The notes below the pieces were generated by a model, which worked only from the letters and a program-made list of their open reading frames with translations, made no database searches and was not told the DNA's origin. A program made the translations under genes and the position numbers. This document shows positions 26,182 through 30,621 of a stretch of DNA of 34,585 nt, one piece after another; the first letter of the stretch is position 1, and each line of letters opens with the position of its first letter. Source of the stretch: a virus; the IMG/VR virus record IMGVR_UViG_3300045988_064981, positions 1 to 34,585 of that record; one strand, given 5' to 3'.

Positions 26182-26403
26182 ATGCTTGCAGAGATCACGC
26201 GCGCCGGACTGAGCCGTGCACAGGTGGGAGCGCTGATTGACGAGTGGGTGTTTTCGGCGCGGGACAGACAGATCCTGCGCCTGAAGCTGCTGGACGGGCA
26301 GACCTATGAGCAAATTGCAGAGGCGGTGCGTCCGCAGATGTCGCCGCGGCAGATCAAGCGGATTGTGACCTGCCGGGTGGATGATTTGCTCAAGCGAGTA
26401 TGA
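26182..26403 (+). CDS. Stand-alone sigma-70 region-4 / LuxR-like HTH protein (73 aa)
   Basis: SARDRQILRLKLLDGQTYEQIAEAVRPQMSPRQIKRIV has a region-4-like pattern. It is the last gene before a strong terminator. Confidence 0.55.
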   Translation: MLAEITRAGLSRAQVGALIDEWVFSARDRQILRLKLLDGQTYEQIAEAVRPQMSPRQIKRIVTCRVDDLLKRV

Positions 26404-26405
26404 TG

Positions 26406-26439
26406 TTGGGGTGGGCTTCGGCCTGCCCCAATTTTTTTT
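26406..26439 (+). terminator. Rho-independent terminator ending the late/lysis operon
   Basis: ttggggtgggc-ttcg-gcctgccccaa stem followed by tttttttt. Confidence 0.8.
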
Positions 26440-26451
26440 GATTTTTGGGGC

Positions 26452-26547
26452 GAAAATCTTTGGAAAGGTGTTGACAATATACGATTAATCATATATAATA
26501 ATAGATGTAAGGGGGAGATGGAAATCCCCGGAACAAACGAGGAGGAC
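26452..26547 (+). repeat. Promoter/operator/leader cassette, copy 1 (~90% identical to 27962..28057)
   Basis: gaaaatctt..ggtgTTGACAatatacgattaatcataTATAATaata..gggggagatggaaatcccc..acgaggagga. Confidence 0.9.
26471..26499 (+). promoter_or_regulatory. Consensus sigma-A-type promoter with embedded palindrome (accessory operon 1)
   Basis: TTGACA (26471..26476), 17 nt, TATAAT (26494..26499). The spacer holds atatacgattaatcatatat, a 19/20 palindrome. Confidence 0.75.
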
Positions 26548-26554
26548 ATGGAAA

Positions 26555-26899
26555 ATGAAAAAGGAACTTGCAAACGAGATTAAGGCTGTGGCACACGAGA
26601 TGGGTCTTGACGCTTGGGACCGCGAATACGAGTACGTTGGCATCCGCGTGCAGGAGCAGGAGTTTGAGCTGGGTGAGATCACTCACAAGTCTCACAACTG
26701 GGGCTACAACGACAATTATGAGACCGTGGACTTTGGTGAGGAGCTTGACGGCATCTGCTGCACCCGCCTGGAGGAGGCCGAAAAAAGCGAATACTTTGGT
26801 GAACATATCGCCGTCATCTGCGGCAACCACGCTACGTTTGGCGAGGACGACGGTGAGATCATCATCGAGGATCCCGTGGTTGTCAAGATCATCAGATAA
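26555..26899 (+). CDS. Highly acidic protein (114 aa), unknown family
   Basis: SD GAGGAGGA, 7 nt before the ATG. 28 D/E versus 10 K/R. It is the first gene after cassette copy 1. Confidence 0.75.
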   Translation: MKKELANEIKAVAHEMGLDAWDREYEYVGIRVQEQEFELGEITHKSHNWGYNDNYETVDFGEELDGICCTRLEEAEKSEYFGEHIAVICGNHATFGEDDGEIIIEDPVVVKIIR

Positions 26900-26913
26900 T
26901 TGGAGCAGCATCA

Positions 26914-27552
26914 ATGCCTGACGTAAAAGCAAATCTCAAATGCAGGGAGTGTGGGATCCCCATCCCACACCCCACTGCGTATCAAACGCTCTGCGACGAG
27001 TGCGCAAAGCGCCTGAAAAGTGCAATGGCGCTCCGGCCGCGTGTATGCGTCGAGTGCGGGGTTACATTTGACGGTTATCCCAAATCTAAGCGCTGTCCGG
27101 CTTGCCGGCATGAGCGCGTGCTGCGGCTTCGGGCGGGGTATCGGGCTGCGGAAAAGGCGGGCAAACAGCGCAAAATTGGCGAGACATATCTGTGCGAGAG
27201 ATGCGGCAAGCCGTATACGCTGACCGGCGGATTGCAGCGATATTGCCCGGATTGCAAGGACGATGCGGTGCTGGAGGCCAATCGCGCTGCGTCCCGCGAG
27301 TATATGCGGGCGCACCGGGGCGAGCAGAAGCGATCTAAACACGCCGTCAGATATTGCGTGGTCTGCGGGAGGGATATCTCCGCGAACACCAGCACTATCA
27401 CGTGCAGCCCGGAGTGCGCGCTGGAGCGGAGACGGCAGCGGCAGCGCGCTGCGGATGCTCGGCGCGGAGTCGGGCGCGGCTCACAGGATTACACCCCAAC
27501 AAAAGCACGCGGGGTCCCGCGTACCCTGAAGTCGGCAAAAAAGGAGGAATAA
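26914..27552 (+). CDS. Multi-zinc-ribbon protein (4 CxxC...CxxC units), paralogue of 28729..29901
   Basis: CRECG..CDEC, CVECG..CPAC, CERCG..CPDC and CVVCG..CSPEC, with a basic C-terminus. It is collinear with the N-terminal half of the longer paralogue. Confidence 0.8.
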   Translation: MPDVKANLKCRECGIPIPHPTAYQTLCDECAKRLKSAMALRPRVCVECGVTFDGYPKSKRCPACRHERVLRLRAGYRAAEKAGKQRKIGETYLCERCGKPYTLTGGLQRYCPDCKDDAVLEANRAASREYMRAHRGEQKRSKHAVRYCVVCGRDISANTSTITCSPECALERRRQRQRAADARRGVGRGSQDYTPTKARGVPRTLKSAKKEE

Positions 27553-27553
27553 T

Positions 27554-27763
27554 ATGGCAGTATCAGACGCCCAGAGAGCGGCGTCCGCGCGCTGGGAAAA
27601 AAAGAACCGCAAGGCCGTAGCCTGCACGCTTCCTCGAGAGGAGGCAGAAGCGTTTTACGCCGCGGTAAAAGAGGACGGCACAAGCGTCAACGATGTGCTC
27701 AAACGATGGATCCGTGACTATATGGCGTGCAGGGCTGACAAAAATGAGTCTTGCAAAACGTGA
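27554..27763 (+). CDS. RHH-like small DNA-binding protein (69 aa)
   Basis: SD AAGGAGGA. KAVACTLPREEAEAFYAAVKEDGTSVNDVLKRWIRDYM fits strand-helix-helix. It is homologous to an internal segment of the 28729..29901 product. Confidence 0.65.
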   Translation: MAVSDAQRAASARWEKKNRKAVACTLPREEAEAFYAAVKEDGTSVNDVLKRWIRDYMACRADKNESCKT

Positions 27764-27927
27764 GTGGCTGTGCTATCTTATAGTTGCATACCGTGTCAGG
27801 CACGCCTCCTCGCGCGCCTGTGGATTGAAATGCGAATAGCAATGCAGACGATGCTTTTTCCAACCTTGCTCTTGCGGGGCGATGCGATGCTCGTGGTATG
27901 CGGAGCGCATCTCAGCATCCGACGCAG

Positions 27928-27961
27928 AGAGAGTCCCGCAAGGGACTCTCTTCTTTTTTTT
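27928..27961 (+). terminator. Rho-independent terminator ending accessory operon 1
   Basis: agagagtccc-gcaa-gggactctct followed by tcttttttttt. Confidence 0.85.
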
Positions 27962-28057
27962 GAAAATCTTCAAAAAGGTGTTGACAATATACGATTAATC
28001 GTATATAATAATAAGTGTCAAGGGGAGATGGAAATCCCCAAGAACAACGAGGAGGAT
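27962..28057 (+). repeat. Promoter/operator/leader cassette, copy 2
   Basis: gaaaatctt..ggtgTTGACAatatacgattaatcgtaTATAATaata..aggggagatggaaatcccc..acgaggagga. Confidence 0.9.
27981..28009 (+). promoter_or_regulatory. Consensus promoter with perfect 20-bp palindrome ATATACGATTAATCGTATAT (accessory operon 2)
   Basis: TTGACA (27981..27986), 17 nt, TATAAT (28004..28009). The palindrome at 27987..28006 overlaps the -10. Confidence 0.75.
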
Positions 28058-28064
28058 GATTGAG

Positions 28065-28736
28065 ATGTACGTATACGATCGTGGACTGTATGTATTTAAT
28101 CGTGACGAGATGAGATTTATGGACGGCAAGACCGTCCTCATAATCAACACCATGCGCCGCGCCCCCGACGAAAGTCGCCCGTGCCACAACACCGACGAGA
28201 TCATCGGCAAGGTGATTGACGTCGATGCCCTCCCGTACGACATTGCACATGATGCGTATGTCGTGCCGGACGTCGAGGCCATCAAGGCGGCGGTTGCCGA
28301 AAAATATCCTGTTGATTGCGCTGAGCTGGATGACGGCTCCGTGGGATGGACGAACATAGACGAGGAGCCGTGCTGCGAGTATACATACGGGGTGTGCATC
28401 CCGAGTATGTATAACATCCCTGATGAGTTGGACGATGATGAGCAGCTTGAGTGGTGGGCAGATCATCACTGGGAGCGCGACGAGGGCGAGCCGGAGTGGT
28501 ATGATACGCTCAAGGAGGCTCTCGCGGCAGCTGACAAAGCGTTTTCTGCCGGACAGCCCATCCCCTGGATCTACATCCAAAAATTTAACGTCAAGACCGG
28601 CGATCCGGAGTACGAGCTGGATGAGATCGAGCTGGATGCGGATGAGGACGGCAATTGGGACATGGGGTCGGACGATCCGCTGGCGTGGAAAGAGTACAAT
28701 CTGGCTTGTGACGAGGATGAGGTAGACAATGCCTGA
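28065..28736 (+). CDS. Highly acidic protein (223 aa), unknown family
   Basis: ATG at 28065, 9 nt after GGAGG (the ATG at 28056 abuts the SD). The C-terminal third is nearly poly-D/E (DELDDDEQLEWW..DPEYELDEIELDADEDG..CDEDEVDNA). Confidence 0.75.
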   Translation: MYVYDRGLYVFNRDEMRFMDGKTVLIINTMRRAPDESRPCHNTDEIIGKVIDVDALPYDIAHDAYVVPDVEAIKAAVAEKYPVDCAELDDGSVGWTNIDEEPCCEYTYGVCIPSMYNIPDELDDDEQLEWWADHHWERDEGEPEWYDTLKEALAAADKAFSAGQPIPWIYIQKFNVKTGDPEYELDEIELDADEDGNWDMGSDDPLAWKEYNLACDEDEVDNA

Positions 28737-29901
28737 GATCAGAGCCAACGTTATTTGCCGAGAGTGCGGGACACCAATCCCGCACCCTACTCGGTATCAA
28801 AAACTTTGCGACGAGTGCCAGCAAAAAGCAATCCACAAGGGCAAAAAAGTTGAACGCATTTGCACCGAGTGCGGTCGGAAATTTATCGGCGGGCCCAGTG
28901 CCAAGAGATGCCCGGACTGCAAGCGTGAGCGCGACCTAGAGAGAGCGCGGCTGCACCAGCAAGCCAAGGCTGCGGGGCACGCGCGGGAGCTTGGAAGGAC
29001 GTATATCTGTGAGGCGTGCGGAAAACCTTACGTCCTCAATAGTGGGATGCAAAAATATTGCCCGGACTGCATGGAGGAGCAACGCAAAAAAGATACCCGT
29101 GAAAAAGTGAATGACTACATGCGTGCCAATAAAGGCAAGTATCCCAAATACCCGCGTATGAGAGTATGCGTGATCTGCGGTAAGATACTCGAGCCGGGGA
29201 CGCGCGAGATTACATGCAGCCCGGAATGTGCGGAAAAAAGAGCGTTGCAACAATACGACGCGTCAATGGGTAATCCTGATCCGGACTATCACCCGACAAA
29301 GGGCGCCGGGCATCCGCAAAAATCCAGACGCCAGATGACTGAGCTCTCGACGTCAGGAGCGACCGATCAGTTAGTGCAACCCCACAAAGCAGTCTGTTGC
29401 AAATTGCCCGTAGATGAGGCTAGGTCGTTTGCGAATGCGGCTCTTGTTAATGGGATGTCCGCATCACAACTCTTGCAGCAGCTGGTCCGCGACTACATGG
29501 CAAACAAAGACATAGCGGCGTTGGCGGCCGCGGCTGAAAAATTACCGAAGCACGCGCGCCGAGATGTAAAAAAAACTTGTCAAAAGTGCGGTATCGAATT
29601 TATGGGAGATCGCATTGCAAAATACTGCCCCGCATGCAAGATAGCGGTCCAGCGCCAGCAGACGTTAGACTACTCAAGACGCATGCGCCCAAAGACCAGC
29701 CGCCATGTAGGCGAGGTCTATCCGTGCAAGCGCTGTGGTAATGATTATGTACTAGAGACTCCTGGTCAGCAGTATTGCCGTAAGTGTGCCAAGATTGCAT
29801 ATAGAGAGTATGCAGCCAATGCATATCAAAATAAGCGAGCCCGCGAAGCGCAAAAAAAAGAAGCAACGCCGGAGGAAGAGTCACAAAATACAGATCAGTG
29901 A
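28729..29901 (+). CDS. Multi-zinc-ribbon protein with internal RHH-like segment (6 CxxC...CxxC units)
   Basis: 390 aa. The N-terminal ~200 aa are collinear with 26914..27552. The middle segment KAVCCKLPVDEARSFANAALVNGMSASQLLQQLVRDYM matches the 27554..27763 product. Two further zinc ribbons follow at the C-terminus. Confidence 0.8.
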   Translation: MPEIRANVICRECGTPIPHPTRYQKLCDECQQKAIHKGKKVERICTECGRKFIGGPSAKRCPDCKRERDLERARLHQQAKAAGHARELGRTYICEACGKPYVLNSGMQKYCPDCMEEQRKKDTREKVNDYMRANKGKYPKYPRMRVCVICGKILEPGTREITCSPECAEKRALQQYDASMGNPDPDYHPTKGAGHPQKSRRQMTELSTSGATDQLVQPHKAVCCKLPVDEARSFANAALVNGMSASQLLQQLVRDYMANKDIAALAAAAEKLPKHARRDVKKTCQKCGIEFMGDRIAKYCPACKIAVQRQQTLDYSRRMRPKTSRHVGEVYPCKRCGNDYVLETPGQQYCRKCAKIAYREYAANAYQNKRAREAQKKEATPEEESQNTDQ

Positions 29902-29903
29902 TA

Positions 29904-29930
29904 AGCCGCCCCACATGGGGCGGCTTTTTT
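29904..29930 (+). terminator. Rho-independent terminator ending accessory operon 2
   Basis: gccgcccc-acat-ggggcggc followed by tttttt. Confidence 0.85.
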
Positions 29931-29961
29931 GTCCCTAAAATGTCCCCATTTTGACACCGAA

Positions 29962-30002
29962 GTGTCCCCTGCATGACATCGTGCAGGGGGCGCTTTTTTT
30001 TT
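29962..30002 (+). terminator. Second tandem terminator
   Basis: gtgtcccctgca-tgacatcg-tgcagggggcgc (12-bp stem with two G-U pairs) followed by ttttttttt. Confidence 0.7.
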
Positions 30003-30029: not shown

Positions 30030-30437
30030 ATGAATGGATATGGCAATCCTTACGGCTACCCCTATAGCCCCGGATATCAGCAGCAGATGTACGGGCAGCA
30101 AATGCCGCAGCGGTATGAGCTGGTCAAAGTCAGCGGACGCGGCGGCGTGGACGCGCTCCGGGTTGCGCCGCGAAGCGAGCTGCTTGCAATGGACACGTCC
30201 CGCGCCGACGTGCTGCTCGCGTGGTACATCCAGGCGGATGACGCAGGTTATAAGTCGGTGACGCCCTACGTGCTGACACCTTACACCGATCCCGCGCCGA
30301 TTGATGCAACGAACATCGAGCAGAGGCTCAAGAGATTGGAGGAGATCATTGATGGCAAATCCGTTGCTGGCAAGCCTACAAAAGCAGACCGCGCCGCAGC
30401 AGCCCGCCAACCCGTTGCAGATGCTGGCGGAGTTTAG
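30030..30437 (+). CDS. Hypothetical protein with Tyr/Gly/Gln/Pro-rich N-terminus
   Basis: SD AGGAGGTGGAG, ATG at 30030. NGYGNPYGYPYSPGYQQQMYGQQMPQRYELVKVSGRGGVDALRV... Confidence 0.65.
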   Translation: MNGYGNPYGYPYSPGYQQQMYGQQMPQRYELVKVSGRGGVDALRVAPRSELLAMDTSRADVLLAWYIQADDAGYKSVTPYVLTPYTDPAPIDATNIEQRLKRLEEIIDGKSVAGKPTKADRAAAARQPVADAGGV

Positions 30438-30621
30438 GCGCTTTGCGTCCGGCATCATCCCGTTGCAGATGCTGGCGGAGTTTAGGCGCTTTGCGTCCGG
30501 CATCACCCCGCAGCAGGCGCAGACAAAAGTCGAAGAGCTGCTGCAATCCGGGCAAATGTCGCAGGAGCAGTTTGAGAGCCTAAAAAAACCGGCGCAGGAT
30601 TTTATGGAGTTTCTTAAATAG
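30352..30621 (+). CDS. Gln-rich small protein carrying an internal 16-aa perfect duplication
   Basis: SD GGAGGAG, ATG at 30352. PLQMLAEFRRFASGI occurs twice. It overlaps the previous ORF by 86 nt. Confidence 0.55.
   Translation: MANPLLASLQKQTAPQQPANPLQMLAEFRRFASGIIPLQMLAEFRRFASGITPQQAQTKVEELLQSGQMSQEQFESLKKPAQDFMEFLK
30411..30506 (+). repeat. Perfect 48-bp tandem duplication (2 units, differing only at the last base)
   Basis: cccgttgcagatgctggcggagtttaggcgctttgcgtccggcatca[t/c] at 30411..30458 and 30459..30506. In frame (16 codons). Confidence 0.95.

Follow-up and report, generated by a model that had tools for sequence, protein, structure and literature searches.

A phage-borne family of four-zinc-ribbon proteins paired with ribbon-helix-helix modules at the ends of two putatively autorepressed accessory operons

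The window analyzed here is the whole of IMG/VR virus record IMGVR_UViG_3300045988_064981, a complete temperate phage of 34,585 bp with direct terminal repeats, probably a phage of the Oscillospiraceae. Its genes run from structural genes through a SpoIID/M15 endolysin, holins, and a 73-aa sigma-region-4-like protein to two short accessory operons, further cargo genes, and a tyrosine integrase on the minus strand. Both accessory operons, which thus fall after the lysis genes and before the integrase, end in a gene for a strongly basic protein (pI, isoelectric point, 9.3-9.7) built of zinc ribbons, and it is these proteins and the DNA-binding modules that accompany them that we describe. In related loci (given L numbers below, with P numbers for proteins), the ribbon genes likewise occupy the interval from the lysis genes to the integrase or to an equivalent genome end. 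Operon 1 closes with the ribbon gene P0001 and a separate small gene, P0003, of the ribbon-helix-helix (RHH) type, and operon 2 with P0002, a single gene in which homologous parts are joined:

26914..27552, plus strand: P0001, basic (pI 9.7) and 212 aa long, carrying four zinc ribbons of the four-cysteine (Cys4) kind.
27554..27763, plus strand: P0003, a 69-aa RHH-type protein, predicted to bind DNA and translationally coupled to P0001.
28729-29901, plus strand: P0002, 390 aa, made up of the core, an RHH module, and two ribbons.
28729..29328, plus strand: residues 1-200 of P0002, the four-ribbon core, paralogous to P0001.
29380..29502, plus strand: residues 218-258 of P0002, the internal RHH module, homologous to P0003.
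29572..29793, plus strand: residues 282-355 of P0002, two extra Cys4 ribbons related to core ribbons 2-3.

The original prediction, made from the letters of the DNA, described the short and long ribbon proteins as collinear paralogues, and formal alignment bears this out, with BLASTP matching P0001 to P0002 from residue 1 at 45% identity over 203 aa (E 6e-59). The proposed alignment of the 69-aa open reading frame (ORF) with an internal segment of the long protein also holds (P0002 residues 220-258, 46% identity over 39 aa, E 6e-10), and formal alignments thus agree that a homologous RHH-type module stands apart in operon 1 and lies inside the chain in operon 2. The predicted counts of four ribbons in P0001 and six in P0002 are correct, the latter consisting of the same four plus two after the RHH module; residues 282-374 are a further copy of P0001 ribbons 2-3 (BLASTP E 7e-11). 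The CxxC...CxxC pattern assigned to every ribbon applies to P0001 generally and fails only at ribbon 4, whose last pair is CxxxC. All 16 cysteines of P0001, which make up four predicted Cys4 sites (C10/13/27/30, C45/48/61/64, C94/97/111/114, and C148/151/164/168), are invariant in an alignment of 43 homologues; a long helix follows each ribbon, and the chain ends in a conserved tail, D-x-RRG...PDY-x-PTK.

The first ≈30 codons of the two genes (26912-27003 versus 28727-28818) share 75% nucleotide identity and 22 of 30 residues, against 45% identity for the rest of the proteins, a contrast that points either to ribbon 1 being under tighter constraint in this clade or to partial gene conversion. 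P0001-type and P0002-type genes are each present without the other in related phages, which argues that the two arose by modular assembly and not by local tandem duplication.

On the sequence evidence, the split between P0001 and P0003 is real. The 27552/27554 junction reads ...AAGGAGGAATAA-T-ATGGCAGT, comprising a Shine-Dalgarno (SD) sequence, a TAA stop, one base, and an ATG start, with the SD sequence (GGAGGA) 7 nt ahead of the P0003 ATG. An A-rich run (GCAAAAAAGG) adjoins this junction and the P0001 and P0003 frames differ by +1, as would be expected if an assembly or sequencing frameshift had broken a truly fused gene. The identical junction, however, occurs in seven other, independent assemblies drawn from ENA, Logan, and IMG/VR (L001, L005, L014, L016, L022, L023, and L024), the ATG is preceded by a good SD sequence, and the RHH frame is kept despite ≈38% amino acid divergence between the two RHH types described below. 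Within one type, the P0003 ORF differs from those of L021 and L022 by six synonymous and no nonsynonymous changes. We therefore regard a frameshift error as having a negligible chance of being the explanation. The RHH frame is intact in L020 and L021 as well, and the cluster of P0004, which is 92% identical to P0001 and has the same stop, holds 122 member sequences. The ribbon gene itself shows a ratio of nonsynonymous to synonymous divergence (dN/dS) of 0.10-0.30 against its relatives and, together with the synonymous bias in P0003, this indicates that both are translated genes under purifying selection. Programmed frameshifting at an A-AAA-AAG heptamer near the end of P0001 (27532-27552) was considered and rejected: the −1 frame stops after ≈25 codons while the RHH frame is +1, and the slippery-type heptamer is not conserved in L005.

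P0003 is RHH-like by tests that are weak one by one but concordant. Its AlphaFold2 model places an extended segment at residues 18-27 ahead of helices at 28-41 and 45-61, and a Foldseek search with this model returns almost exclusively RHH proteins, ParG, ORF56, Arc, CopG, CopA-SO, AmrZ, and NikR on top, with target-normalized template-modeling (TM) scores of 0.6-0.8. Profile comparison points the same way (EndoAI, E 0.008; AvtR, 0.01; ParG, 0.025; CopG, 0.13; Arc, 0.28), as does a Pfam match to ParG (E 0.025, under the cut-off), and homologues of P0003 carry a weak RepB-RCR_reg mark.

Each operon is headed by a promoter cassette:

26452..26546, plus strand: cassette P1, with TTGACA at 26471-26476, a 17-nt spacer, and TATAAT at 26494-26499.
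27962..28056, plus strand: cassette P2, with TTGACA at 27981-27986, a 17-nt spacer, and TATAAT at 28004-28009.

The two cassettes form a 95-nt direct repeat, 86% identical, and both promoters match the consensus at 12 of 12 positions. Across the spacer and the −10 element of P1 lies a 20-nt palindrome, ATATACGATTAATCATATAT (26477-26496), and P2 has the perfect palindrome ATATACGATTAATCGTATAT at 27987-28006; these are the only two sites of the palindrome in the window, where 0.12 would be expected. A ribosome-binding site, GAGGAGGA in P1, follows a leader hairpin that both cassettes share. Both operons have one plan, in which a terminator is followed by a consensus promoter with palindrome, a conserved leader, one to three variable small genes, and the ribbon gene, with or without a separate RHH gene, in last place. 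In relatives, cassettes of the P1/P2 type head other cargo genes; none was found in the isolate or metagenome-assembled genomes (MAGs) searched.

A promoter of the same general design occurs at both ends of the record (56-84 and 34522-34550), where TTGACA-AGTACACCGATGGTGTAC-TATAAT is identical in the two copies and fits the terminal repeat. This promoter carries a GTACACC palindrome and resembles P1 and P2 in pairing a promoter with a palindrome, with a different specificity. It is probably the early promoter of the lysogeny switch.

The strongest functional evidence for the role of the RHH module, in our judgment, is the way in which its sequence and the promoter palindrome change together. 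A scan of metagenomes with the leader sequence yielded seven more loci, which we pooled with the other loci and typed by operator and RHH sequence:

Type A: RHH strand and helix KAVACTLPREEAEAF; operator TATACGATTAATCGTATA, inner form CGATTAATCG; found in the window, L014, L016, L020, L021, and L022.
Type B: RHH strand and helix KAITCVLPRKQAEAL; operator TACGCT(A/C)TAGCGTA (CGCTATAGCG), inner form CGCT(A/C)TAGCG; found in L005, L023, and L024.

One further locus, L026, has a type A operator on a contig that ends ahead of the RHH gene. No mixed pair of operator and RHH module occurs among the typed loci, though cargo is shuffled across types: in L021 and L022, cargo of the type B phages is found together with an operator and an RHH module that are both of type A. 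A sliding comparison of the window with L023, a type B locus, shows ≈93% nucleotide identity in the ribbon gene and 100% at the junction, a drop to 55-65% confined to 27574-27744 (the RHH core), and ≈100% again downstream. Synonymous divergence (dS) is ≈1 in the RHH core against 0.16-0.2 in the ribbon gene, and across relatives the ribbon gene stays 91-95% identical while the RHH core and the palindrome switch type jointly. This mosaic profile, together with the covariation, argues that the DNA-reading part of the RHH module was swapped together with its matching operator, and that the ribbon protein was not. In L005, a second cassette lacks a regulator of its own and has the same operator as the first, an arrangement that fits control in trans. 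Palindromes analogous to those of P1 and P2 occur in promoters of L005, L007, L009, L023, and L042, and the three loci with a separate gene of the helix-turn-helix (HTH) type HTH_3 (L007, L009, and L042) have another palindrome, CCAC..GTGG, over the −10 element.

The same observations bear on whether these proteins might be general phage transcription factors, for late genes or lysogenic conversion, with their main targets elsewhere in the phage or host and the P1/P2 palindrome bound by some other phage repressor. Other RHH proteins do occur at the phage lysogeny switch, the early promoter at 56-84 shares the consensus-with-palindrome design, and the RHH module of P0002 is tied to no operator type. 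The palindrome of the early promoter is a different one, however (GTACACC...), TACG..CGTA is present only at P1 and P2, and the P1/P2 palindrome changes with the 69/72-aa RHH protein, independently of the remaining phage genome. We judge this explanation quite unlikely.

The ribbon core and its DNA-binding modules are found in many arrangements. The core is followed by a separate RHH gene in operon 1 of the window and in L001, L005, L014, and L020-L024, and it follows one in L045. It is fused to an RHH module in P0005, whose locus (L008) has an additional small RHH ORF upstream, and core, RHH module, and two ribbons form one chain in P0002 and P0006. The RHH module and two ribbons also stand alone, as P0033, at the position of P0002 in L014, L016, L017, and L025; P0033 is 50% identical to P0002 residues 228-385. 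An HTH_3-type module of ≈115 aa takes the place of the RHH module elsewhere. In L009 and L007 it has its own gene, which lies upstream of the core; in L042 that gene is downstream; and the same HTH type is fused to the C terminus of the core in P0014 and P0018. Among 96 longer family members, the extra domains are DNA-binding ones, namely HTH_3, HTH_31, HTH_19, AP2, HTH_23, Sigma70_r4_2, GerE, and an MqsA-like domain. Where the neighborhood of core-only proteins was read, a DNA-binding gene is immediately adjacent in six of seven cases, mostly with overlapping stop and start codons; a separate RHH or HTH gene adjoins the core on its upstream side in L045, L009, and L047. This recurrence of fused and adjacent states, a Rosetta-stone signal, argues for joint action by the core and the DNA-binding module.

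A small coupled gene pair with an RHH member could also be a toxin-antitoxin system, the basic ribbon protein being the toxin. RHH proteins are common among antitoxins, the best sequence match of P0003 in the PDB is the antitoxin EndoAI, and two family members show a weak match to MqsA_antitoxin. Yet P0002, P0005, and P0006 carry both parts in one chain, an HTH, AP2, or sigma-region-4 domain can equally serve as the partner, and the Pfam, NCBIfam, and PADLOC scans gave no toxin-domain match, and we therefore consider this explanation very improbable.

In a maximum-likelihood tree of the core, the split proteins P0001 and P0004 and the fused proteins P0005 and P0002/P0006 form one clade (support 98/95), within which P0005 is sister to P0001 with support of only 87/49. 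Parsimony on this weakly resolved topology would favor a fused ancestor with fission in the P0001 line. The RHH gene upstream of the distant core in L045 indicates that the association of RHH module and core is older than the 98/95 clade. Taken alone, the fission or fusion event is an ordinary one.

The core itself defines an unnamed, phage-borne family, in keeping with the statement of the original prediction that its repeat family was not recognized. An exhaustive search gathered 797 representative clusters (50% identity), of which 403 have E ≤ 1e-10, and about half of the members are core-only proteins. The Pfam models DZR (PF12773) and DZR_2 (PF18912) match at or just under threshold: P0002 scores 27.7 against a gathering value of 27.3 and 27.2 against 27, respectively, P0001 falls below with 23.8 and 20.5, and DZR_2 matches 65 of the 96 longer members. 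What these models have in common with the core is the CxxC-Xn-CxxC ribbon pair; they describe a generic two-ribbon unit of unknown function and miss the four-ribbon-plus-helices core, the 16 invariant cysteines, and the conserved tail. The AlphaFold2 model of P0001 (predicted local distance difference test score, pLDDT, 88.6; predicted TM score, pTM, 0.64) consists of four units, each a zinc ribbon with a long helix, and a search of the PDB with the predicted core fold returned no solved structure at E ≤ 0.001. In BFVD, the fold matches uncharacterized gut Siphoviridae proteins that carry automatically assigned labels (30-33% identity); the ribbon arrays of HNH proteins from actinophages are more remote matches.

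Two functional labels were tried for the core and set aside. The PHROGs profile for an HNH endonuclease (phrog_1271) matches with E of 1e-12 to 1e-16, and only through profile positions 154-259 of 361, which are its ribbon array; the ribbon proteins have no Pfam HNH match, and what they share with phrog_1271 and the actinophage proteins is the zinc-ribbon array, not the HNH catalytic domain. As a defense system, the ribbon genes gave no meaningful PADLOC match.

Relatives of the ribbon core are carried by Oscillospiraceae MAGs, and the full core is present in only 4 of 301 sampled Oscillospiraceae genomes, which fits the expectation for a phage-borne accessory gene. In L048, the core-only protein P0089 (2444-3540) overlaps the stop of a small serine recombinase gene (Resolvase plus HTH) within an element that also has ArdC and restriction enzyme genes, and the core family is thus not confined to tailed-phage genomes.

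The four-ribbon array could instead be the payload, an effector that binds nucleic acid or protein of the host or a competitor (for example in anti-defense or host takeover), with the RHH, HTH, or AP2 module as no more than its built-in or adjacent autoregulator. The core is indeed conserved while the upstream genes vary, about half of the family members consist of the core only, and it remains 91-95% identical through the RHH swap, so that there is no co-adaptation with the operator-reading module; moreover, anti-CRISPR (Acr) proteins with built-in RHH or HTH modules are on record (PMC13551039). Set against this, a strongly basic charge and a zinc-ribbon array fold are seen more typically in regulators that bind nucleic acid than in known Acr proteins; the gene comes last in its operon, as regulators do; and there was no match in PADLOC or any other family library. 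An effector role is, in our estimate, possible but on the unlikely side.

We propose that P0001/P0003 and P0002 are the regulator modules of the two accessory operons, working by autorepression like that of the anti-CRISPR-associated (Aca) protein Aca14 together with a basic zinc-ribbon partner, and we give this proposal an about even chance of being right. Its starting points are the homology of the proteins, the split, which is real, the purifying selection on the genes, the recurrence of fused and adjacent states, and the covariation between operator and RHH module. The RHH module would act as a sequence-specific repressor, binding as a dimer or tetramer to the TATACG-N6-CGTATA palindrome over the spacer and −10 element of P1 and P2, and such binding would exert negative feedback on its own operon and control the neighboring one. 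The four-ribbon Cys4 array would bind four zinc ions and serve as a conserved partner domain for the DNA-binding module at hand, fused or encoded next door, most likely by supplying nonspecific DNA or RNA contacts or oligomerization; an accessory nucleic-acid-binding or oligomerizing role is suggested by the fold and the basic charge of the array and by the fact that it is obligatorily associated with DNA-binding modules. Operon 1 would deliver this regulator as two separate, translationally coupled parts, and operon 2 as one chain with two extra ribbons.

Several observations weigh against autorepression by these modules. The single RHH matches are statistically weak, with E of 0.008-0.4 by sequence and 0.35-10 by fold, and the covariation comprises two operator types only, in related and non-independent phages. 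The RHH module inside P0002 has another predicted DNA-contact strand (KAVCCKLP) than P0003, and P0002-type modules co-occur with all three operator types (in the window, L001, and L007), so the P0002 module may not bind P1 or P2. In one case, the core-only protein P0063 (L046), the adjacent genes include none for DNA binding. An array of zinc ribbons 180 aa long is absent from the known Aca proteins, which are small DNA-binding domains. Finally, no cargo gene matches a known anti-defense or other family, so the anti-defense label for the operons is given by analogy only.

Two noncoding elements are conserved alongside these modules. The leader hairpin GGGGAGATGGAAATCCCC lies between the −10 element and the ribosome-binding site of both cassettes (26512-26529 and 28022-28039) and is kept before unrelated cargo genes in relatives; the P1 variant in L005, GGGGC...GCCCC, preserves the pairing. 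The second element separates the RHH gene from P2:

27764..27962, plus strand: a noncoding stretch of ≈165 nt and an intrinsic terminator, with a stem at 27927-27952 plus a T run.

Phages with RHH genes that are dS ≈1 apart share this ≈165-nt stretch at ≈98-100% identity, which makes it more conserved than the synonymous sites of the ribbon gene. Its terminator shows compensatory changes at two stem pairs, with too little variation elsewhere for covariation, and Rfam gave nothing near a gathering score between 25500 and 31000. The stretch could be a structured RNA, an attenuator, or a recombination boundary sequence. In L001, L022, and L023, a P0002-type gene without its own promoter directly follows the terminator. 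It is conceivable, if rather unlikely in our view, that the array represents a new phage-specific class of regulator partner, docking on RHH, HTH, or AP2 modules and adding a second binding activity, for example toward the leader hairpin or the ≈165-nt element. If so, these proteins would be dual DNA/RNA controllers of accessory or anti-defense operons in phages of gut Clostridia, and the ribbon gene would be an anchor for finding new anti-defense genes in these phages.

The remaining features of the region are the cargo genes and the elements that delimit the operons:

26182-26403: a 73-aa sigma-70 region-4-like protein, encoded after the holins and before operon 1 and conserved in L005 in the same position.
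26405..26440, plus strand: an intrinsic terminator, a 12-bp stem followed by a T run, that ends the sigma-region-4-like gene and insulates operon 1.
26555..26899, plus strand: operon 1 cargo, a 114-aa acidic protein, pI 4.4.
28056..28736, plus strand: operon 2 cargo, a 226-aa very acidic protein, pI 4.05.
29903..29996, plus strand: two intrinsic terminators at the end of operon 2, from a terminator scan.

Neither the 114-aa nor the 226-aa protein has a match in Pfam, PHROGs, NCBIfam, or PADLOC, a search made without a dedicated anti-defense library, and the 226-aa protein has only two homologous clusters among 5.8 billion proteins; the two are without known relatives outside this phage group. 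The operon 1 cargo is replaced in relatives by unrelated 99-aa and 87-aa genes, and across loci the ribbon and DNA-binding genes are preceded by at least 10 different cargo sets, consisting of orphans or of hexapeptide- and pentapeptide-repeat proteins. The latter include an acidic 245-aa hexapeptide-repeat β-helix protein in L008 (28-765) and L007 (5271-6008), which matches Pfam Hexapep at E 1e-34 and lies outside any transferase context, and a 480-aa pentapeptide-repeat protein in L009 (544-1986). Hexapeptide- and pentapeptide-repeat folds can mimic DNA in other contexts. The proteins of L008, L007, and L009 are candidate DNA mimics, which is compatible with counter-defense and no proof of it. 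Downstream of operon 2, a further cargo ORF contains an in-frame 48-nt tandem duplication (30408-30503) whose copies are 98% identical.

Phages of gut Oscillospiraceae are almost unexplored for counter-defense and lysogenic-conversion genes, and a conserved terminal regulator gene is the type of anchor that enabled the discovery of Acr proteins through Aca genes. The repeated fusion and splitting of the core with different DNA-binding modules amounts to a natural experiment in modular regulator building. In addition, the matched swap of RHH core and operator, with the rest of the operon unchanged, offers a clean and directly testable case of specificity-cassette exchange.

Three known systems bear comparison with the unit described here. 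Experiments have shown that Aca14, an RHH protein, binds an inverted repeat over the −10 element, repressing both the operon it belongs to and an adjacent one (PMC13551039). In layout, the likeness is that a small DNA-binding gene ends a short phage operon of variable small genes and that an inverted repeat covers the −10 element of a strong promoter, with the motif repeated at the neighboring operon, as in P1 and P2. The systems differ in that the upstream genes of the window match no known Acr or anti-defense gene, and in that the hosts of Aca14 are Proteobacteria whereas the host group here is gut Oscillospiraceae. By domain types, a second likeness is to haloarchaeal CdrL, in which RHH_1 precedes a double zinc ribbon at the C terminus (PMC7439475); this order of an RHH domain and two Cys4 ribbons (Pfam DZR) is that of P0033 and of the C-terminal half of P0002. 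CdrL, however, is a chromosomal archaeal protein of a cell-division locus and lacks the four-ribbon core. AcrIIA1 (HTH) and AcrIF25 (RHH) resemble the core proteins in joining a conserved functional domain to an exchangeable, autoregulating DNA-binding module whose type varies between homologues, whereas the ribbon core has no known anti-defense activity or homology. The unit is best filed as a variant of the Aca-like phage operon regulators, built on an unnamed family of zinc-ribbon arrays.

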